From: a virus
Virus record (IMG/VR): IMGVR_UViG_3300027932_000003
Span: 1 to 34,531 of that record
Direction: 5' to 3' (one strand)
Length of the DNA stretch: 34,531 nucleotides
The position numbers and the translations under genes are program-made. The notes below the pieces were generated by a model. That model did not search any database. It was not told the DNA's origin and saw nothing but the letters and a program-made list of their open reading frames with translations. Shown here piece after piece: positions 2,493-34,531 of this stretch; the first letter of the stretch is position 1; each line of letters opens with the position of its first letter.

Positions 2493-3017
2493 ATGAATAT
2501 AGTTTTGAGAGAATTGAATAAAGAAAAATTTAATATAAATATCACTGCATGGTTAGATATTGATAATGATATTCAAAGTTGTTATACAAATTTTAAAGAA
2601 ATTACGATAGTTACAATAATTCAAATGATTTCTGAAATTGTAGAAAAAGATGGCTGGGATTTACAATATTTTGAGAAAGATGAAGAAGAAAAATTATTTA
2701 ATGCATTTATGAAAAACTCTAAAATTACAGTACGGCTAAATAAAAAGATAGATGAATTGAATTATGATTTTAAAGAAACTATTGTTGAATTTGATTTTTC
2801 AGAAAGTGAGAAAAAGAAAATTGCAGAAATATATTTGAGTAATATACTTAATGAATATCGTTATTTAAATGACTGTATTTTGGAAAATTTAGCAGACAAA
2901 GATATTAATTCGATTTCAGAAGCTTTAAGTAGTGAAGTTTATCAATTATTAAGTTCTGATGAGATAAAAGCAAAATTTAAGGAAAAGATAGAGAAAATTA
3001 ATACTGAAAAAGTATAG
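2493..3017 (+). CDS. hypothetical acidic protein (174 aa)
   Basis: ATG ORF; promoter cataaatatGTCATAaatataaaag at about 2451..2478. Confidence 0.55.
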   Translation: MNIVLRELNKEKFNINITAWLDIDNDIQSCYTNFKEITIVTIIQMISEIVEKDGWDLQYFEKDEEEKLFNAFMKNSKITVRLNKKIDELNYDFKETIVEFDFSESEKKKIAEIYLSNILNEYRYLNDCILENLADKDINSISEALSSEVYQLLSSDEIKAKFKEKIEKINTEKV

Positions 3018-3032
3018 ATAAGATGTGAAAAT

Positions 3033-3194
3033 ATGGATTTAAATGCTCCATTAGATCCAATATGGCTTTTGGTTATTGTTGGAATTTTTTATGAATTATT
3101 ATTTATCTTTTTCTTATTGGAATTAAGACAGATAATGAAACGAATTGAAGAAGAAGAATTAGTCAGAATGTTAAAAAAGAAATATAAAAATTAA
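3033..3194 (+). CDS. small hypothetical membrane protein (53 aa)
   Basis: Hand-translated: MDLNAPLDPIWLLVIVGIFYELLFIFFLLELRQIMKRIEEEELVRMLKKKYKN; one hydrophobic helix followed by a charged tail; starts 16 nt after the stop of 2493..3017; below the ORF-track size cutoff. Confidence 0.3.
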   Translation: MDLNAPLDPIWLLVIVGIFYELLFIFFLLELRQIMKRIEEEELVRMLKKKYKN

Positions 3195-3293
3195 ATAAAT
3201 TTTCACTAAAAATATGGCGTAAGCTACAAAGATAAAAGTTTAGAGAAAACTTTAAATATAAGTTTAGACATATGTTATATTGAGGTAAGAAGA

Positions 3294-3461
3294 ATGAAAG
3301 AAGTAAAAGTTGGAAATTCGAGATATTATATAAGTTCAAGAGATGATGAGATAAGTGTAATACATGAGTTAGTTCAAAAAGGTTACTCCATAAGTCAAAT
3401 AGCTAGTTTGTTGAATATTTCAGAAAGAAAAATTAAAAAATACTTAGAAGATTGTTGGTAA
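3294..3461 (+). CDS. small helix-turn-helix DNA-binding protein (55 aa)
   Basis: Hand-translated: MKEVKVGNSRYYISSRDDEISVIHELVQKGYSISQIASLLNISERKIKKYLEDCW; GYSISQIASLLNISERKIKKYL is a typical HTH; TATA module at 3241..3260 and gaggt 8 nt upstream of the ATG; missed by the ORF track. Confidence 0.45.
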   Translation: MKEVKVGNSRYYISSRDDEISVIHELVQKGYSISQIASLLNISERKIKKYLEDCW

Positions 3462-3642
3462 GTTATTTCTTTTTTTGATTTTTAATTTTTTCTTTTCTTT
3501 TTATTTTTATGTTTTATTATTTTTAGTTTTAAAATATCAATACAAAATTTTCGATAAATTTTGGAATTGAAAGATATGAATGTAAAAGTTTGAAGAAAAT
3601 TTTATAAAGGGCAAATGACATAATGTAAAATTGGAGGTAAAT

Positions 3643-8341: not shown

Positions 8342-8503
8342 ATGATGGAGAAAGTTAAAAAGGAAAGAACAGTTTTCGGTATAAATATAGATAAAGAATT
8401 AAAAAGAAAATTAAAAGTATATTGTGCAAATAATAATATCACGCTAACAGAAGCAATTGAAGAAGCTTTAGAAGAATATTTACAGAAAAGGGGAACTAAA
8501 TGA
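8342..8503 (+). CDS. ribbon-helix-helix (CopG/Arc-like) DNA-binding protein (53 aa)
   Basis: Hand-translated: [53 protein letters not shown]; promoter atataaataTGTCATAat at 8301..8318; missed by the ORF track. Confidence 0.55.
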
Positions 8504-10407: not shown

Positions 10408-10518
10408 AAAATTATAGAATATCTTTTAAGCTATTTTATTTTTTTAATTTTTCTTTTTCAGAACTTTAGTTCAAATTTAAAATTTAAAAAAATTTACTTT
10501 TAACTTTTTAACTTGAAA

Positions 10519-10707
10519 TTAATCATTATCATCAATTTTTGTTTCTATATACTCATAATTTGTTTTACTTATTCTTTTACAATCACTAATTTTTACATTA
10601 GGATGATGTTTTTTCAAATGTGTAATCATAGCTTTTCTAGTTCTCGTTAAATGTTGACAAATTGGACATTCAAATAAAAAGATACCCATAGTGTTTTTTA
10701 GTGTCAT
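10519..10707 (-). CDS. C2H2 zinc-finger protein (62 aa)
   Basis: CPICQHLTRTRKAMITHLKKHH = C-x2-C-x12-H-x4-H. Confidence 0.6.
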   Translation of the reverse strand: MTLKNTMGIFLFECPICQHLTRTRKAMITHLKKHHPNVKISDCKRISKTNYEYIETKIDDND

Positions 10708-13576: not shown

Positions 13577-13607
13577 ATTTATTAAGTCTTTATTTTTTTA
13601 TGCCCTA

Positions 13608-13629
13608 TTTTTTTCAAATTTGTATTAAT
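13608..13629 (+). repeat. T-tract + palindromic element, copy 4 (tttttttCAAATTTGtattaat)
   Basis: CAAATTTG palindrome after a T7 run, 3' of 13223..13576. Confidence 0.35.
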
Positions 13630-13655
13630 ATTTCTAATTTTTAACAAACAGAAAA

Positions 13656-13678
13656 CGAAAGATTTATATATTTCGAAA
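13656..13678 (+). promoter_or_regulatory. Inverted-repeat-flanked TATA promoter, second copy, for the winged-helix gene 13704..13928
   Basis: Same 23-mer as 13176..13198; 38 nt from ATG 13704. Confidence 0.5.
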
Positions 13679-13703
13679 GCATATATTATAATGATGAAAG
13701 AGA

Positions 13704-13928
13704 ATGAGGATAGGTAAAGAAGAAGAAAAAATTTTAGAATATCTTCAAAAAAATGGAGATTCAGAGTGGTTAGATAAATTGAAAAGTACTTTTTCTCATA
13801 CTGTTGGATATAAAATAATTGTAAATAAAAGAATAAAGAATCTAGAGAAAAAAGGTCTAGTAAAAATTGTTTGGGAAAAGAATCCACAGACTGGAAGAAA
13901 TAAAAAGAAAGTGTATTTAGTAACTTAA
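13704..13928 (+). CDS. winged-helix DNA-binding protein (74 aa), paralog of 4015..4251
   Basis: See 4015..4251; conserved NKR, KKGL, NPxTGR and VYL positions. Confidence 0.6.
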   Translation: MRIGKEEEKILEYLQKNGDSEWLDKLKSTFSHTVGYKIIVNKRIKNLEKKGLVKIVWEKNPQTGRNKKKVYLVT

Positions 13929-16608: not shown

Positions 16609-16680
16609 ATATCATCAATATAAAAATTTTTATATGACAAATTTAAACATATATATGTCATAATTTTTAAGTTTAATTTG

Positions 16681-17064
16681 ATGAATTTTAGACAATCTGG
16701 AAAATATTATGAATATAAGACACTTAATTATCTTGAAAAACATGGCTATAAAGCTATAAGAATTCCAGTTTCTGGAACTGGAAAACAGCCAATTCCAGAT
16801 ATTATAGCAATTAAGGATAATACAATTTTTCCAATTGAAGTTAAATCAACTTCACAAAATTATGTTGTAATTGATAATTTTCAAATTGATAAATTGTTTA
16901 AGTTCTGTGAGATATTCAATTTTTGTAATTGTAAACCGTTAATACTAGTTCATTATAAAAAATATAAAAATGTCATAATATATAATTTGAGTCAAGATGT
17001 CAGAACAAAAGAAAAAATCAAATTTGCCTTCAGAGCTAACAGCAAAACTGTATTTAGCACTTGA
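16681..17064 (+). CDS. Holliday junction resolvase, Hjc-type (127 aa)
   Basis: ORF track start 16678 is TTG; ATG at 16681. RIPVSGTGKQPIPDIIAIKDNTIFPIEVKS shows the SG ... PD-IIA ... EVK nuclease core of archaeal Hjc; promoter atatatatGTCATAattt. Confidence 0.75.
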   Translation: MNFRQSGKYYEYKTLNYLEKHGYKAIRIPVSGTGKQPIPDIIAIKDNTIFPIEVKSTSQNYVVIDNFQIDKLFKFCEIFNFCNCKPLILVHYKKYKNVIIYNLSQDVRTKEKIKFAFRANSKTVFST

Positions 17065-17206
17065 CGATTTAACTATGGCATTAGCTACTTGTGATAGTGA
17101 AGAAATTAGAAAGAGTGAAGTTTTTCAAAAAGCTCTAGAAGTTGTGAAAATTGTAAAAGAAATGAGAAATGCTAAAATAAAATCTGATGAAGAAGAAAAA
17201 GCCTAA
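16997..17206 (+). CDS. hypothetical helical protein (69 aa), overlapping the 3' end of the resolvase gene
   Basis: ATG ORF in another frame overlapping 16681..17064 by 68 nt; plausible composition; uncertain. Confidence 0.3.
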   Translation: MSEQKKKSNLPSELTAKLYLALDDLTMALATCDSEEIRKSEVFQKALEVVKIVKEMRNAKIKSDEEEKA

Positions 17207-17213
17207 ATTTCAA

Positions 17214-17237
17214 TTTTTTTCAAGTTAAAGAGATAAC
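17214..17237 (+). repeat. T-tract + palindromic element, copy 5 (tttttttCAAGTTAAAGAGAtaac)
   Basis: Same motif family, directly after the stop at 17206. Confidence 0.35.
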
Positions 17238-17620
17238 ACATTTGGGTTATATCTTTTTATCTAAAATTTTTTTCTTTATAAATCTCGTTACGCTCTTTCT
17301 TTGCGTAAAATTACGTTAAGAAAAATAAAAATATCGAGAGATAAGAGTTTAAAAAGATTTCTTGTAAATTTACGACTTTAGTTTATATACTCATCATTAC
17401 AATTTGTTACGCAGTAAGCGAAATAAAAGATCATTAGATGAATTGAAAGTACGTGTTTGATTTCAAATTTCAATTTTTCATATCATAAAAAAATCGAAAA
17501 ATAAAAAAGTTTTTACTTCTTCAGTTGAAAACTTCAAAAAAAGGAAGAAGATTTTGACATAAAACAATTTTTACTTTTACAACAACATTTATAATTTTAT
17601 AATATATACATGATAATAAT

Positions 17621-20600
17621 ATGAGTTTCTTATTAAATCTTGGTGACCTAGGTACATTTTTTTCAGATGAGCTAACAGCATTAGAAAATTTTGCAAATTT
17701 CTTAAGCTCTGATTTTATAAACTTTTTTAGTGCAGTAGTTAATGATATTGAAAATGTTGTAAGTTTCATAGGTCAGGCAATTAGTGATATTCCAACTTTT
17801 ATGCAAAAAATTGCTAACAATTTCTTGACGATTTTGCAAAATTTTGTACAAACTGCAATTCCAGTAGTAAGTGGATTTTTAACATTTCTTGAACAACAAA
17901 TTATAAATGTATTTCAAGATTTATCTTCTTTAGCTTCTACATTTATAAACGATGCATATTCATTTTTACAGGGTGTTGTAAATGCATTTGCAAATTTAAT
18001 AAGTACAATAGTTCAAGATTTCTTAAATAATTTTGGTCAAAATATGAAACATATTAGTTCTGCAATTTCTCAACTTACTCAATTTTTAACTCCATTTATT
18101 GCACCAATTACAATTGGTAAATTTTTGCCAGCAATAATAGATAAATTAGCTGAAATTTTGCCAGAAGTTGAAATAGATTTAGCACCTGTTGGTCTAGGCG
18201 GAAAAATTCCAATTAACTTTGGAGAAATTGTAAAAGCGTTTGCTGAAACTGCGGTAGACTTTTTTGATGAAGTTAGACAAGAAATACAAACTACGCTTAA
18301 GGAGTTTATAAAAGAGCCATTTATTTCAGATTTTAAAATTACTGCTAGAGAAATATTTAATGAAATTGGACTTGGAGATTTGCCATTTGCAGATCCTCCA
18401 TTTAGATTAATTGCAAATTGGGTCGGAGCAAGATCATTTTCCGAAATAAAAGACCATCTCAGGGAAACAATTTTATTGACCGGTTTTCCAGCATGGTTTA
18501 CTGATGCTTATCTAGAATCTCCTGCAGATGATTATATACCTAAAAATCCATTATTTAGACCAGTAAATATAAGAGATGTAATTTTAGCGTCTCAATACGG
18601 TTTTCTGAATTTTGATGCAGTTTCGCAATATGCAGAAAATAATTTAATAACTCCAAAAACTGCAAAATTAATGTATCAAAATGAGACTGCTAGACTTTTG
18701 CAAAGAGCAGTTGAGGAAGGCATTCGTCAATTTATAGTCACCCCAGAAAAAGCTTATCAAGAAATAATACAAAATGTCAATTTAGCAGGCAAAGACTTAT
18801 ATTTAAAAGTTTTTACTTTAGAGTATAATTATTCAGTTCAAAGAATTGTCAGACAATTTTTAAGATCACTTTTGTCGAGAGCTTTAACGAATTTTGGAAG
18901 ACCTTACATTGATCTAAAATTCCTAGAATCAACAGTTCAAAAATTATTTAAAGAATTAAATTATCCTGAAGAAGTTCAAAATGTTTTTAACGTTATGATT
19001 GAACAATCTCAAATTGTGTATACTAATCAATTACTTTTAACACAATTAGAACAAATTACCAGATTAGGAATATTTGATGAGAAAAAGATAAAAGCGGATT
19101 TAAAAGCTAATAACTTTAATGAACAAATAGCACTAACAATTTTGAATTATGAACTTCAATATGTACAATTACAACATATTCTAAAAGAGTTTCAGTTCAA
19201 ACTACAAAATTACATTATTAGTTCAAAAGATGCAGAAAAAGAGTTAAAACATCTAGGTTTTGATTCTTCTATAATCTCTGAGATAATTTTTGAATATCAA
19301 ACAGCTCCATTAACAAAATATCAAATTAGTCAAATTGAAAATTTAGCAAAGAAAGGATATTTATCAGTTGATGAAATTAAAAAACAATTAAATTCTCTTA
19401 AAGTAATTAAAGAATTTGAAGACATATTTATCAATTACACAAATCAAGAAATTCAAATATCATCAATTTTGAGTATTGCAAAAGAACAATTGAGAAACTT
19501 CTTGATAGATTTGAAAACTGTAGAAAATGAATTAAAAGCGTTAAAAATTAATGATTATTTAATAAACGAGGTAATTCAAGAAGAATACAATATAAATATT
19601 GCTAAATTACAATTATCATATATAGAAACTTTAGCTAAGAATTTATACTATGATCAAGCTCAATTAGCTGGAGAATTATCTAAAATTTTGAAAGATAAAA
19701 CTGCAATAGATCTTTATACTCAAAAATTCTATTATGAATATGTATTTCCAAAAATAGTTAACTATTACGTAAGTTTAGCAAGACATGGAATAATTGGAAA
19801 TATTAAAAATTTACCAAAAGAAATTGTAGATTATGAAATTAATCCAGAAATCCAAATTTTTCAACTTACAACAGAATTAGAATATATAAAGTCTTTATTA
19901 AAAGATTTACAAATAACTCCAACAAATGCTGAAAATGAGTTAATAAAATTAGGAATGCAAAAAGATATAGCTAATTTGTTTGTACAAACTTATGTACCAA
20001 CATTTTATAGTTTACATACTATAATTGGAAATGTTGTGCAAGGTCAACTTTACAAAGTAGGAAAAATTCCAATTAATTTAGGAAATGCAGAACAACAATT
20101 AAGACAATTAGGAATTCCAGATAATCAAATTAAAGTTTTATTAAACCAATATGCCTCTTCATTTGGCTTAGAAATTTGGAGGAAATTCTTACCTTCACTT
20201 TCTCAAATTGAAACTGCAATAAAATATAACTTTCCAATTAGTCAATTAGTTGAATATTCATTTATACCTTCTGAATTTCTAAATCTTTACACTAATTTAT
20301 ATCAATATGAGCTAATTGGACAATATGTACAATCTCTAAAGACAGAATATGTAGAATTATTAGTTTATGGAGTTCAAAATATACAATTAGAAAGTTTATT
20401 AAAACAATACGGAATAAATGAAACATTATTAGGAGTTTTCAAATTATCAGCTCAAATTAGAAAAATATTAACGGCTTACCAAGAGCTTTACATCACCCCA
20501 TCTAAAGCACTCACAATTAGCGAATATATTAGTAATCCTAATCAATTATTACAAAAAGTATTTAGTGAATTTCAAGTTCCTAGTGATTTACAAAATACTT

Positions 20601-20797
20601 ATCTCGAGTATGCAAGAAATAGGAGATTAAGGACTTACGTAAACGACATAATTTCAACAATCAATTTACTATTTGAAAAGCAGAAAATTGATTTAAATAC
20701 CGCACAATCATATTTGCAACAATTAAAACAATATGGTTTAACTAATGAAGAAATACAATTAATATTGTTAAACTGGCAATTGAGATCTAACTACTAA
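17621..20797 (+). CDS. large virion-associated structural protein, predominantly helical (1058 aa)
   Basis: Single uninterrupted ATG ORF of 3.2 kb; size matches the roughly 1070-aa rudivirus minor structural / terminal fibre protein (from memory). Confidence 0.75.
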   Translation: MSFLLNLGDLGTFFSDELTALENFANFLSSDFINFFSAVVNDIENVVSFIGQAISDIPTFMQKIANNFLTILQNFVQTAIPVVSGFLTFLEQQIINVFQDLSSLASTFINDAYSFLQGVVNAFANLISTIVQDFLNNFGQNMKHISSAISQLTQFLTPFIAPITIGKFLPAIIDKLAEILPEVEIDLAPVGLGGKIPINFGEIVKAFAETAVDFFDEVRQEIQTTLKEFIKEPFISDFKITAREIFNEIGLGDLPFADPPFRLIANWVGARSFSEIKDHLRETILLTGFPAWFTDAYLESPADDYIPKNPLFRPVNIRDVILASQYGFLNFDAVSQYAENNLITPKTAKLMYQNETARLLQRAVEEGIRQFIVTPEKAYQEIIQNVNLAGKDLYLKVFTLEYNYSVQRIVRQFLRSLLSRALTNFGRPYIDLKFLESTVQKLFKELNYPEEVQNVFNVMIEQSQIVYTNQLLLTQLEQITRLGIFDEKKIKADLKANNFNEQIALTILNYELQYVQLQHILKEFQFKLQNYIISSKDAEKELKHLGFDSSIISEIIFEYQTAPLTKYQISQIENLAKKGYLSVDEIKKQLNSLKVIKEFEDIFINYTNQEIQISSILSIAKEQLRNFLIDLKTVENELKALKINDYLINEVIQEEYNINIAKLQLSYIETLAKNLYYDQAQLAGELSKILKDKTAIDLYTQKFYYEYVFPKIVNYYVSLARHGIIGNIKNLPKEIVDYEINPEIQIFQLTTELEYIKSLLKDLQITPTNAENELIKLGMQKDIANLFVQTYVPTFYSLHTIIGNVVQGQLYKVGKIPINLGNAEQQLRQLGIPDNQIKVLLNQYASSFGLEIWRKFLPSLSQIETAIKYNFPISQLVEYSFIPSEFLNLYTNLYQYELIGQYVQSLKTEYVELLVYGVQNIQLESLLKQYGINETLLGVFKLSAQIRKILTAYQELYITPSKALTISEYISNPNQLLQKVFSEFQVPSDLQNTYLEYARNRRLRTYVNDIISTINLLFEKQKIDLNTAQSYLQQLKQYGLTNEEIQLILLNWQLRSNY

Positions 20798-23481: not shown

Positions 23482-24456
23482 ATGTCTGGCCCAGTGACTG
23501 TCTCACGAATACCGCAACCATCATTTCCATGCAAAGCAGTCTATAAAATTGCTAATTTATTATCTCCAGTAACTAAATATTCATTAATTTCCTCTTCCTT
23601 ATGGAACGAAATTGTTCAAGATTTATATCTAACTTATAGTGTATTCAAATATATTAACTATTTATCTCAATATCCATATCCAGAATATATACAGCCTGCA
23701 ATTGATGAATTTCTAAACTTTCCTTATCAATTTACGCCTTATTCATTTACGCCTCTATTGATTGCACAAAAAGGAATTCCGTTAACCGCAGATGAATTTA
23801 ATAAACTTATTGATGCAATTACAGAATTAGCGAATAAATCCAATATTAAACTAAAATCACAACTAAATCACGTTCAACGTGATCAAATTGTTAGATCTTC
23901 ACAATTTTCAAATATAATTTATGCGGTAAATCAGTTACTAACTTTCAATCATAATCAGTACTTTCTACTTAGTTGTACAGGTTATGAATTTAGTAATTTA
24001 TTAAGTAAGCAAAATACATTTCTGAATGTGTTAATTGAAAATTTAAAATATAGCATTACTATTCCCTCAAATACTTATATTAAAAACTTCTTAATATATC
24101 AAACTTCAGAACTTATTATTAGTTACGGTTCAATTGCAAACTTAGTAATTAAAATAAATTTTGGAGGAATATTGTTATATAATTATTCATATATAAATTC
24201 AGTAAATATAGAAACTGATAATGACGGAATGCGTTTTACTGGTCATACATCAGCTAATACAATCACTATTCAAACTGAAAATGGAGGTATTTTTTTATAT
24301 GATGATTCATATGTAAACACTTTATATGTAGAAAATAATGTTGCAGGAATATATTTATATAATAATGCGATAATAGAAAATTTAATTTGTAAACAAAATT
24401 CTGGAGGAGTATATGTTTCTGGGAATGCAAAAATTATAAATAATCAATGTGCTTAA
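23482..24456 (+). CDS. hypothetical protein with C-terminal beta-helix-like repeats (324 aa)
   Basis: C-terminal roughly 100 residues carry repeats GGILLYNYSYINSVNIE / GGIFLYDDSYVNTLYVE / AGIYLYNNAIIENLICK / GGVYVSGNAKIINN. Confidence 0.6.
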   Translation: MSGPVTVSRIPQPSFPCKAVYKIANLLSPVTKYSLISSSLWNEIVQDLYLTYSVFKYINYLSQYPYPEYIQPAIDEFLNFPYQFTPYSFTPLLIAQKGIPLTADEFNKLIDAITELANKSNIKLKSQLNHVQRDQIVRSSQFSNIIYAVNQLLTFNHNQYFLLSCTGYEFSNLLSKQNTFLNVLIENLKYSITIPSNTYIKNFLIYQTSELIISYGSIANLVIKINFGGILLYNYSYINSVNIETDNDGMRFTGHTSANTITIQTENGGIFLYDDSYVNTLYVENNVAGIYLYNNAIIENLICKQNSGGVYVSGNAKIINNQCA

Positions 24457-32651: not shown

Positions 32652-32966
32652 TTAGTATATATTCCAAATCAATAAAGCAATTAACTTCAATATTTCTTCA
32701 CGCGTACCTTCAATTACTTTTTCATTATCAAAACTCTGACTGACCTTATACAATTGTGCAATCTTCTGCAAAATTTTAATAACGTCTAAATCTTGTGGAT
32801 TTAAGTACTGATAATAAACTTCATTTTCACCATGTTTTATCTTTATAACTAATTTGTTATACTCTATATGCTTACCTTGCACTTGTTCTAACTGAATTAA
32901 AAAATTAACATTAACTTGTTGTTCCAATACCTCTTTCATTTGACTTTGACTTTTTTCTTGACTCAT
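32652..32966 (-). CDS. hypothetical protein (about 104 aa), diverged paralog of 1567..1764
   Basis: Driven by the right-ITR copy of the promoter; ATG 32966 is 39 nt from the mirrored TATA (ATG 32978 is also possible); product shares KE(L/V), VYYQY / FYYSF and DxxIKI segments with the left-end 65-aa protein. Confidence 0.45.
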   Translation of the reverse strand: MSQEKSQSQMKEVLEQQVNVNFLIQLEQVQGKHIEYNKLVIKIKHGENEVYYQYLNPQDLDVIKILQKIAQLYKVSQSFDNEKVIEGTREEILKLIALLIWNIY

Positions 32967-32992
32967 CTTTTTCACCATTATCTATTATCTCT

Positions 32993-34531
32993 AAACTCAT
33001 ATTTAAATCTTTCTCTACCTTTTCATGTCTTCATTTTTCGACTTATAATTATGTTATTTTTGATGATCATTATATTTTCTTTCATAAATGACTTTCCCAT
33101 GAATTTTTAATACACCAGTTCTATCAAATTCAGCTAACGCATTCAAATACTCCTTGTAAGCTTTGATAATATAATCTATTCTATTATGCATTCTTTCTAA
33201 AATTTTTTTCTGCTCAGCAGTTAATTTATGTACTCTTGTCATTTTTTATCATCTACAAATCATCATATATTATATGACGAATATAAAACATTCTCTATCT
33301 CCTTAACTCTTATCGCCACCTCTCTCTATAGAGAACGTGTAAATTCTGTCTCTCCAATTTCTCTCATAACACCAAACATAAATTGTTTCCTAACGGTGAA
33401 AAATCCTAAAAAAACCTATTTTAGGTTTGACTATAATTTATTAATTATAAACTACTAACTACATAACTATATAATTATTATATTGAATAACTAGATAGTT
33501 TCCATATTCTCTAAATTATTAAATCTCCTTACAATTTTTACCATAAAATACTGATATAAATCCAAACTGTATACAGAATCTTCTATTGAATTGAAAGAAA
33601 AAAAGAAACTATATTTTACACTTGAACTACAAAACTATAATTATTATATTATAAACTACTAATTAGTAGTTAGCTAATTATATAATTATATAACTTCATA
33701 ATTATATAATTATCTAATTTAAATGTTAATAATAATATATATAAAAAAATAATAATAAGAAGAAAGATAATGCCCACTAACAATACTAAATGCTTTCTTC
33801 TGGTATATAAACTTTTCTTTCTAAACTTCCAATTTCTCCAACACTAAACGCAAAAAACTAACAACACATAACGATTTGAATAAATATAACAAATTAACAA
33901 TATGTTTAGTATCTTTCTAACTTTAAATTGAGGTTTTGGTTTGCTAGAATTAAGAAATTAAATAAATTATGAATATGTTTAGTAACTAAAAACTTTAAAT
34001 TGTGGGTTTGGTTCCCTCCAAATTATAAATTATAATATTATAGTTAGTAGTTATTAATATCCACAAATTAACATTTATTACAAATTTCCAAAGTTTGAAT
34101 TTGCAAATTTTATATTACAAATTTCACTAAATGACAGATTAATTGTAATTTAGGAATTTAGAAAATTAGTATTTTTTATCATAGTTGAAAAATTATTTGG
34201 AAATGTAGAATTATTTGGAATTTAGGAATTTCCAATTTTTTAACTTTTTTGCAGAAAATGATAGATTATTTCAAATTTAGGAAATTAGGAATTTACAATT
34301 TTTCTCATTTTTTGCACAATTTACGCAAAATGACAGATTAATTGGAATTTTGGAAGTTTGAATTTTTTGCACCGCTCCAATTATTATTTGGAGGTGTAGA
34401 ATTAATTGGAATTTCCAATTTATTGCGAAAGTTGGGAAATTTGCGAAAAAAACGAAAAAAACGAAAGAAATTGGAATTTTCAATTTTTTGCATTAGTTGT
34501 GAAATTTTCGCAGAAAATGAAAAAAACTACA
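32993..34531. repeat. Right inverted terminal repeat (ITR)
   Basis: Mirror copy of 1..1539; the window ends with the reverse complement of its first bases. Confidence 0.85.
33054..33242 (-). CDS. ITR-encoded hypothetical protein (62 aa), right copy
   Basis: Identical translation to 1290..1478; mirrored promoter. Confidence 0.5.
   Translation of the reverse strand: MTRVHKLTAEQKKILERMHNRIDYIIKAYKEYLNALAEFDRTGVLKIHGKVIYERKYNDHQK

Follow-up and report, generated by a model that had tools for sequence, protein, structure and literature searches.

To our knowledge, rudiviruses are the main model for gene regulation in archaeal viruses, and SvtR with gp30 is the one viral repressor-operator pair that has been studied. 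The SvtR target reportedly described by Guilliere et al. in 2009 lies upstream of gp30 in SIRV1 (rod-shaped virus 1 of Sulfolobus islandicus). SvtR (gp08) is a ribbon-helix-helix (RHH) repressor that acts on the promoter region of gp30 (ORF1070), which it binds with its highest affinity (PMC5569661). The site is located ~80 nt upstream of the transcription factor B recognition element (BRE) and TATA box, and repression is thought to proceed via polymerization along the DNA (PMC5569661). The literature found treats the gp37-gp38 gap only as the SvtR-gp30 promoter; most of this gap is a discrete non-coding module of ~250 bp. The module is described here in the window, that is, the whole 34,531-nt stretch of the IMG/VR virus record IMGVR_UViG_3300027932_000003, where it fills the first part of a 414-bp gap (17207-17620) between two open reading frames (ORFs), ORF69 and ORF1058. 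Coordinates refer to the window, and to its plus strand unless a strand is given. The window is a S. islandicus rod-shaped virus of the genus Usarudivirus, 34.5 kb long; by blastn, the 2 kb around the gap share 94% identity with SIRV8/9, usarudiviruses from Yellowstone, and 77-78% with SIRV1/2/3 from Iceland.

The gap is a composite of a 247-bp module (17207..17453), an 84-nt filler and an atypical ORF1058 core promoter. This organization, with a module that can be relocated, was not foreseen by the initial annotation of the locus, which had described about 410 bp lacking a convincing forward ORF. The description itself is borne out: ORFs in the gap reach at most 31 amino acids, use TTG starts and are not conserved, and every related GenBank record examined has nothing annotated in the corresponding gap. 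The gap was also said to be unusually long, and its counterpart is indeed the longest internal intergenic gap in the annotated, closely related SIRV9. This length arises because an ordinary ORF1070 promoter, the module and a lineage-specific filler add up. Upstream of the ORF1070 homologue the gap measures 414 bp in the window and SIRV8/9/10, 330 bp in SIRV4/5/11, V3 and V65, 277-313 bp in the Icelandic SIRV1/2/3, 239 bp in SBRV1, 134 bp in SRV and ~100 bp in other rudiviruses. A minus-strand ORF at 17521..17769, already described as low-complexity in that annotation, spans the ORF1058 start and the lineage-specific filler and is not credible as a gene. Overall the region is non-coding, conserved and functional-looking, and the earlier interpretation is partly supported.

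Conservation of the gap was assessed in an alignment of 13 Ice- and Usarudiviruses, on which the block calls below rest and in which the module aligns without large gaps. Over the aligned 284 nt, the window and SIRV2 share 73% identity; in the flanking genes, third codon positions reach 63% and four-fold sites 52%. Because the former value exceeds the latter two, the non-coding blocks are under selection. By sequence comparison, the module matches coding DNA in its conservation across four rudivirus genera. The check for conservation in related genomes that had been proposed was positive, with blocks invariant in the 13 viruses and homologues in two further viruses. A search with the gap alone retrieved these homologues from SRV (Azorudivirus) and SBRV1 (Japarudivirus), both at other loci. 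The SRV sequence is 66% identical to window positions 17209-17405 (E = 8e-21), its alignment retaining the T-run/TATAAAT, the right palindrome arm, block A and TTTATATA, and the SRV and SBRV1 modules match each other over 221 nt. A profile search confirmed both homologues and added five IMG/VR contigs; in the wider alignment, homology extends to the GAAAG block.

The module is single-copy in the window, and none of its motifs is shared with other promoters of the genome. It is undetectable in the complete genomes of ARV1, ARV2 and SSRV1. Its location away from the ORF1070 homologue in SRV and SBRV1, and its inversion in SRV, imply that it is not simply the ORF1070 promoter. The comparison instead points to an autonomous conserved non-coding element of ~247 bp with three genomic addresses. 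Two annotated reading frames overlap it, SRV 'ORF59' (10490-10669) and SBRV1 'ORF51b' (13585-13740), one of them with a TTG start. They are probably annotation artifacts, since they lie on opposite strands of the module and have no homologues. A different conserved motif, AATTCTTATAAT...ATTATGAATA, is shared in the short gap before the ORF1070 homologues of the distant rudiviruses SSRV1, SBRV1, MRV1, ARV2 and SRV. [quoted passage not shown]

The module contains the palindrome TTACGC-N9-GCGTAA (17288..17308), with arms at 17288-17293 and 17303-17308. A third half-site, TTACG(T) (17311..17316), follows 2 nt past the palindrome, a fourth, TTACGAC, is found at 17370..17376, and a fifth, TTACGC, lies further downstream in a variable segment. 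The positions reported initially for the two arms and their 9-nt spacer, for TTACG at 17311-17315 and for gttacgcagtaagcg at 17406-17420 are all correct. Five copies of TTACG/CGTAA fall within 126 bp where 0.15 are expected (P ~6e-7, or ~2e-4 corrected for all windows). Six-base-pair stems with at least three G/C are not rare on their own, with 13 in the window against 5.7 +/- 2.9 in Markov shuffles. The motifs had been called G+C-richer than their surroundings, which holds only weakly: GC in the region is 26.5%, the genome averaging 25.4%, and windows of equal or higher GC make up 41%. The conspicuous property is CpG density and not GC content, as positions 17270-17419 hold eight CpG, the genome maximum (mean 1.5 per 150 bp; genome CpG observed/expected 0.64).

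The manner in which the palindrome varies is informative. TTAC and GTAA never change and 9 nt always separate the arms, while the sequence of the spacer varies freely. No compensatory changes are found among the pairs, and four of the 12 distinct sequences break a pair, namely those of the types TTACAC in SIRV8/9/10 and ACGTAA in SIRV4/11. The third half-site reads TTACG or TATCG in relatives, its CpG being kept in nearly all and lost in V60 and in the metagenomic contigs L037 and L055; the CG of the fourth is invariant in the 13 viruses. In contig L055, a 48-nt insertion beside the palindrome adds copies of ACGCC/GGCGTAA, a multiplication of half-sites as expected for an array of binding sites. 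Since half-sites and spacing are kept without compensation, the palindrome is probably a two-fold symmetric protein-binding site on duplex DNA and not an RNA hairpin or a cruciform. Such an arrangement is reminiscent of operators of archaeal and bacterial dimeric regulators (RHH, winged helix-turn-helix and Lrp-type), which likewise have 6-bp inverted half-sites at a fixed center-to-center spacing of 15 bp, extra half-sites nearby that suggest cooperative binding, and adjoining TATA-like boxes. No published TTACGC site for any known Sulfolobus or rudiviral regulator was found in the literature.

Across the genome, the hexamer TTACGC/GCGTAA occurs 13 times against an expectation of 4.3 +/- 1.9. 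All copies left of 17300 read GCGTAA and all those to the right read TTACGC. This switch of orientation at the genome center was discarded as a signal, as the longer TTACG list mostly tracks the direction of the genes and the numbers are low. At 23731-23753, inside the ORF at 23482..24456, TTTACGCC occurs as two direct copies set 15 nt apart, which equals the center-to-center spacing of the palindrome arms.

The reading favored here, which stands at about even chances, is that the module is a control region bound by proteins at the DNA level and not a folded RNA. Under this model, two oligo-T runs would halt read-through from the Hjc-ORF69 transcript and so insulate the late tail-fiber gene. 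The TTACGC-N9-GCGTAA palindrome and the three additional TTACG half-sites would bind a dimeric or oligomerizing regulator, and the segment behind block B would be the counterpart of the SIRV1 site of SvtR. The bound protein might then spread from this counterpart toward the TATA box, silencing the structural gene until late. The identity of the bound proteins, the terminator function and the direction of regulation are all matters that we infer.

Several features link the locus to the SvtR-gp30 system of SIRV1. Both regions lie directly upstream of an ORF1070 orthologue, and the SIRV1/2 region is 72-75% identical to that of the window over ~220-240 nt, with the same conserved blocks. In both genomes the TATA box is far downstream of the presumed operator and an SvtR gene is present. 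The window homologue, encoded at 8345-8503 (+), shares 69% identity with SIRV1 gp08 and matches Pfam PF21432 (56B_RHH) with E = 3e-14. The SIRV1 sequence ATTTTTCAACAGCTAAATGCAA (ATTTTTCAACAG...) matches the left half of the SvtR consensus, the only half found in SIRV1 itself, and stands 77 nt upstream of the core TATA of that virus. This partial match aligns with window positions 17402-17423, at the start of the variable segment, so that the SvtR operator can be placed tentatively on the window.

The promoter of ORF1058 is a second point of interest. Promoters of this virus consist of a TATA box followed directly by TGTCAT, ~22-30 nt before the start codon of at least 23 genes (e.g., at 16638 on the minus strand and at 16657, 20806 and 25993 on the plus strand). 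A position weight matrix (PWM) was built from 23 such promoters of the window genome; it sets true promoters clearly apart and recovers nearly all gene starts. The ORF1058 promoter lacks TGTCAT and scores 0.9, a clear exception among gene starts, compared with 10-22 for the other promoters; its atypical nature fits special regulation. No canonical plus-strand viral promoter was detected in the gap, where the best PWM score is 3.2. The core promoter region (17552..17620) contains the TATA box TTTATAATTTT (17588-17598), which is invariant in the 13 viruses and centered ~28 nt before the ATG, a spacing of the leaderless type.

A number of observations weigh against this model. The SRV module is inverted and lies between the coat-protein operon and the ORF335 glycosyltransferase gene, and in SBRV1 it is flanked by ORF177 (minus strand) and ORF126. 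In both viruses, the sequence upstream of the ORF1070 homologue is short and unrelated. A module away from ORF1070 is not what the SvtR model predicts, and to this gene the element is not tied in other genera; it may act autonomously. Within the window gap, the SvtR consensus ATnnTTCAAnAnnnnnAAAATG finds no match at up to two mismatches. The segment aligned to the SIRV1 site is the least conserved part of the gap, hypervariable and at odds with the published consensus. The window and SIRV9 differ in their variable segments yet have nearly the same SvtR beta-strand, and hence no co-variation is seen. The window gap is also 100-137 nt longer than that of SIRV1, and the DUF1874 gene preceding the SIRV1 region is missing. 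Among the functions proposed initially, a regulatory site for the structural gene is nonetheless the best supported, in view of the homology to the SIRV1 gp30 region, the SvtR homologue and the atypical promoter; the part that fits poorly is the module's location elsewhere in SRV and SBRV1. The published SvtR site may accordingly belong to a mobile module and not to the tail-fiber promoter itself.

The remaining blocks of the module are arranged in a fixed order. Right behind the ORF69 stop codon lies the oligo-T run ATTTTTTTCA (17213..17222), near-invariant in the aligned viruses. Oligo-T is a known termination signal for Sulfolobus RNA polymerase, and by analogy ATTTTTTTCA is probably the terminator of the Hjc-ORF69 transcript. 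A second T-run, CTAAAATTTTTTTC, is followed by the TATA-like TTTATAAAT (17261..17283); this pair is kept in all Ice- and Usarudiviruses, SRV, SBRV1 and contig L055, and in SIRV4/5 it reads TTTATAAATGTC, which resembles the canonical viral promoter. Beyond the palindrome, block A, AGATAAGAGTTTAAAAAGATTTCTTGTAAA (17339..17368), combines a purine-rich BRE-like stretch with the TATA-like TTTAAAAA. It is the best-conserved block of the module, near-invariant in all 13 viruses and recognizable in SRV and SBRV1, and has no further occurrence in the window. Block B, TTTATATACTCATCATTACAATTT (17382..17405), comprises a TATA-like box and the conserved TCATTACAATTT, with the invariant core TTTATATA..T.ATCATTACAATTT. 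Its SIRV1/3 form, TTTATATA-N3-GTCATTAC, comes close to the canonical viral promoter, by PWM only in SIRV1 (score 8.9), and the window has A in place of its G.

Block B is followed by a hypervariable segment of 34 nt (17406..17439), constant in length and mosaic among lineages, which holds gttacgcagtaagcg and the fifth TTACGC. No support was found for gttacgcagtaagcg as a signal of the region, since it sits in the sole hypervariable segment and recurs only in SIRV10 and a single metagenomic contig. At its 3' edge the module has GAATTGAAAG (17440..17449), invariant in the 13 viruses save for its first base (T in SIRV2, A in SIRV3) and present in all four metagenomic contigs examined (L025, L037 and L055, with L031 counted by gene identity). 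Between the module and the core promoter lies the AT-rich, lineage-specific filler (17453..17551, as 17453-17509 and 17527-17551; GC 17%), which amounts to 84 extra nt relative to SIRV4/5/11. The filler is confined to the window, SIRV8/9/10 and close contigs, and is built from imperfect copies of neighboring sequence (D1, D3 and D4).

Among alternative explanations, a structured RNA built on the TTACGC hairpin (a long 5' leader, riboswitch-like element or C/D-box small RNA, for instance) is highly improbable. A 6-bp stem can be drawn, C/D-box small nucleolar RNAs give sub-threshold Rfam matches (E = 0.3-3), and AUGAUGA occurs in SIRV9-type sequences. Yet folding of 17280-17430, as had been recommended, yields a minimum-free-energy structure that leaves the TTACGC stem unused and is no better than shuffles (z = -1.3); values for the minus strand (-0.2) and the whole gap (-1.1) are not significant either. 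RNAalifold gives -6.6 kcal/mol over 199 columns, the wider alignment yields -0.6 kcal/mol, and covariation is essentially absent, in keeping with the uncompensated pair breaks that speak against the hairpin as a structure in RNA or DNA. Rfam returned no match at the gathering score, only sub-threshold ones at E up to 10, and a tRNA search of the region returned nothing. Moreover, box C (RUGAUGA) and box D (CUGA) are not conserved among the aligned viruses, and the ORF1058 TATA lies at a leaderless distance from the ATG. A structured RNA is therefore largely refuted and, like a dead gene, essentially excluded. Equally hard to credit is that the gap is a neutral spacer or the decaying remnant of a lost gene. 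SIRV1/2/3 do carry a PF08960 gene, ORF114 (STIV_B116-like, formerly DUF1874), between ORF69 and the module, a family we take to be the AcrIII-1 ring nuclease, and the window lacks it; the 84-nt filler also resembles a neutral local duplication. However, tblastn with SIRV2 ORF114 detects no trace of such a gene anywhere in the window, and in the Icelandic viruses a likewise non-coding module follows downstream of ORF114. Conservation of the module exceeds the synonymous rate and spans genera, which refutes this explanation for the module and leaves the filler (17453-17551) as the only plausible case. A hidden gene or pseudogene in the gap was rejected on the same tblastn result and on the short, unconserved ORFs. 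The slot upstream of the module, at 17206/17207, is by these comparisons a hot spot for accessory genes, with an ORF93-like paralogue in contig L260 and a 240-bp insertion in V60. Very unlikely, too, is a role in cis in genome replication, resolution or the assembly of virions (packaging or nucleation), with the TTACG copies acting as iterons. The module is single-copy, non-coding and independent of orientation and position, with clustered CpG-rich short repeats and an expanded number of half-sites in one relative (L055). Against this, SIRV2 replication re-initiates at the genome termini, according to one study (PMC5062984), cumulative GC skew has no switch at 17.3 kb, and the complete ARV1, ARV2 and SSRV1 genomes replicate and assemble the same kind of virion without the module.

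Three further explanations start from GAATTGAAAG, whose sequence coincides exactly with the final 10 nt of CRISPR repeats of Sulfolobales (Crenarchaeota). Arrays verified in archaeal genome contigs have repeats of the form G-N-N-GATCTACTATAGAATTGAAAG, ending in ...TATAGAATTGAAAG, with a period of 64-66 nt. The module may be a small non-coding RNA gene with a promoter at 17348-17355 or 17382-17389 and an unstructured transcript of ~65-100 nt, which would include the 34-nt variable segment together with the invariant GAAUUGAAAG and stop at the following oligo-T run; this is rather unlikely. Because GAAUUGAAAG contains the 8-nt 5' handle of CRISPR RNA (crRNA), AUUGAAAG, such an RNA could be a repeat mimic, in the manner of a solitary repeat unit or RNA anti-CRISPR (Racr), or a crRNA-like guide. 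Solitary repeat units lie just downstream of promoters and near acr genes, and bacterial examples act as Racrs (PMC10651486); stand-alone repeats and mini-arrays occur in Sulfolobales viruses (PMC6858448). Like these units, the module is intergenic, has no adjacent cas genes, ends in an exact host-type repeat 3' end, has TATA-like boxes before it (at 17348 and 17382, with no canonical viral promoter there) and a T-run after it, 20-30 nt past GAAAG in most lineages, and follows directly on the PF08960/DUF1874 gene in the Icelandic relatives. Its position and orientation are independent of its neighbors across genera, with nothing downstream to regulate in SRV, and its TATA-like boxes stand at fixed distances. 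In addition, the SIRV9-type 37-mer GATGATGAGAAAAAATATCATCTGGAGAATTGAAAGA is identical at 33 of 37 positions to a solitary-repeat site in a Desulfurococcales metagenome-assembled genome (MAG) contig, including 19 consecutive bases that run from the flank into the 5' edge of the repeat, with 16 lying upstream of the 20-mer that served as repeat query, a match far beyond chance. Unlike solitary units, however, the module matches only 10 contiguous positions of the 24-nt repeat, and its 24-mer is more than seven mismatches from every repeat tested. The 5' two-thirds of the site are no more repeat-like than shuffles (p = 0.19-0.78), the SIRV9-type likeness is borderline (p ~0.03), and the Rfam family CRISPR-DR25 scores 15 bits, below its cut-off of 36. 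There is no second repeat in the gap or filler and no spacer, so that the module does not qualify as a mini-CRISPR array (at least two repeats flanking a spacer, with a leader); the filler taken as spacer plus repeat unit was rejected, as neither its 84-nt size nor its sequence fits. In 120 repeat-carrying loci from archaea other than S. islandicus, nhmmer found no CRISPR-leader homology, its match being confined to the repeat-proximal 42 nt in one contig, and a metagenome scan gave mostly chance AT-rich matches and one true rudiviral contig. The string ATTGAAAG occurs 12 times in the window genome, mostly within genes, and is not kept in SRV and SBRV1, which have lost the block. A quite unlikely variant has GAATTGAAAG as a non-canonical duplex site for host Cbp1, which the virus would recruit or titrate, for instance so as to keep cryptic promoters of the AT-rich spacer silent. 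Cbp1 reportedly has ~92 non-CRISPR sites in S. solfataricus P2 and more in two S. islandicus strains, its 21-bp motif follows the repeat consensus with strongest conservation in 6 bp near the repeat 3' end, and deletion of cbp1 de-represses transcription start sites near host sites (PMC10883916). Such sites resemble GAATTGAAAG in being isolated, repeat-3'-end-like duplex sequences outside arrays and near promoters, and GAATTGAAAG is conserved at the DNA level without RNA structure. They have, however, been described in host chromosomes and transposons and not in viruses, and the same paper does not report peaks on the SIRV2 genome (PMC10883916). The motif match was drawn from the wording of that text alone and the 10-nt likeness marks a candidate; over the remainder of the 21 bp the window does not resemble the repeat, and the block is absent from SRV and SBRV1. 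A broader proposal, unlikely on the present evidence, holds that the module is a relocatable rudiviral element mimicking the host CRISPR repeat, either as a small RNA with a 34-nt cassette and AUUGAAAG, which may serve as a Racr-like decoy or a crRNA-like guide, or as a duplex decoy for Cbp1. Its context is an anti-defense hot spot beside the presumed AcrIII-1-type gene of Icelandic strains, with the 10-mer invariant in all S. islandicus rudiviruses. If the resemblance is functional, the module would be the first candidate for an RNA- or DNA-decoy anti-CRISPR in an archaeal virus.

Other repeat-like sequences were noted in the course of this comparison. A 24-mer in the inverted terminal repeats (ITRs), CAGAATCTTCTATTGAATTGAAAG (935-958 on the minus strand and 33574-33597 on the plus strand), has 19/24 ungapped identity to CRISPR repeats of the Sulfolobales type. 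No other sequence in the genome is as repeat-like, and a match this good occurs in only 3-5% of shuffled genomes; SIRV9 and the first 8 kb of SIRV1 showed no such site. Another copy of GAATTGAAAG, preceded by TTTTG, lies at 3564-3573 in the non-coding stretch 3017-3631 and is not conserved in SIRV9. Dozens of solitary CRISPR repeats outside arrays are present in Desulfurococcales/Sulfolobales MAG contigs (loci L088-L205), many of which share a conserved upstream flank of ~60 nt (…ccagagggctaacacccgagaccccagcataaataagatg) and a downstream gggaggggtcat. Their sequences suggest a dispersed repeat-bearing element in hot-spring archaea.

ITRs of ~1,570 bp with 99.4% identity occupy positions 1-1570 and 32962-34531, and for this reason the window is taken as a complete or nearly complete linear rudivirus genome. 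Upstream of the module, ORF69 (16997-17206, stop codon 17204-17206) encodes a 69-amino-acid homologue of SIRV2 gp36. It is preceded by a Holliday-junction resolvase gene at 16678-17064 (Pfam Hjc, E = 2e-18), a gene left unannotated in the RefSeq records of SIRV8 and SIRV9 (SIRV9 16730-17117). Just upstream of the ORF69 promoter, at 16941-16947, lies TAATACT, the reverse complement of AGTATTA, a motif reported for RHH proteins of the aCcr1/gp21 type. Downstream of the module, ORF1058 (17621..20797, ATG at 17621) is the homologue of SIRV2 ORF1070 and SIRV1 gp30, a minor structural or tail-fiber protein. Homologues are found in all rudiviruses, and the first 400 residues share 75% amino acid identity with those of SIRV1/2; in Pfam, no family was matched. 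In one IMG/VR contig (L031, IMGVR_UViG_3300027931_000075), the Hjc, ORF69 and N-terminal ORF1058 proteins are identical to those of the window. In SIRV1/2/3, the annotated ORF1070 start lies 36 nt upstream of the ATG kept in all other rudiviruses (20451 versus 20487 in SIRV2; 16984 versus 17020 in SIRV1), and the true product in these viruses is probably likewise 1058 amino acids long.

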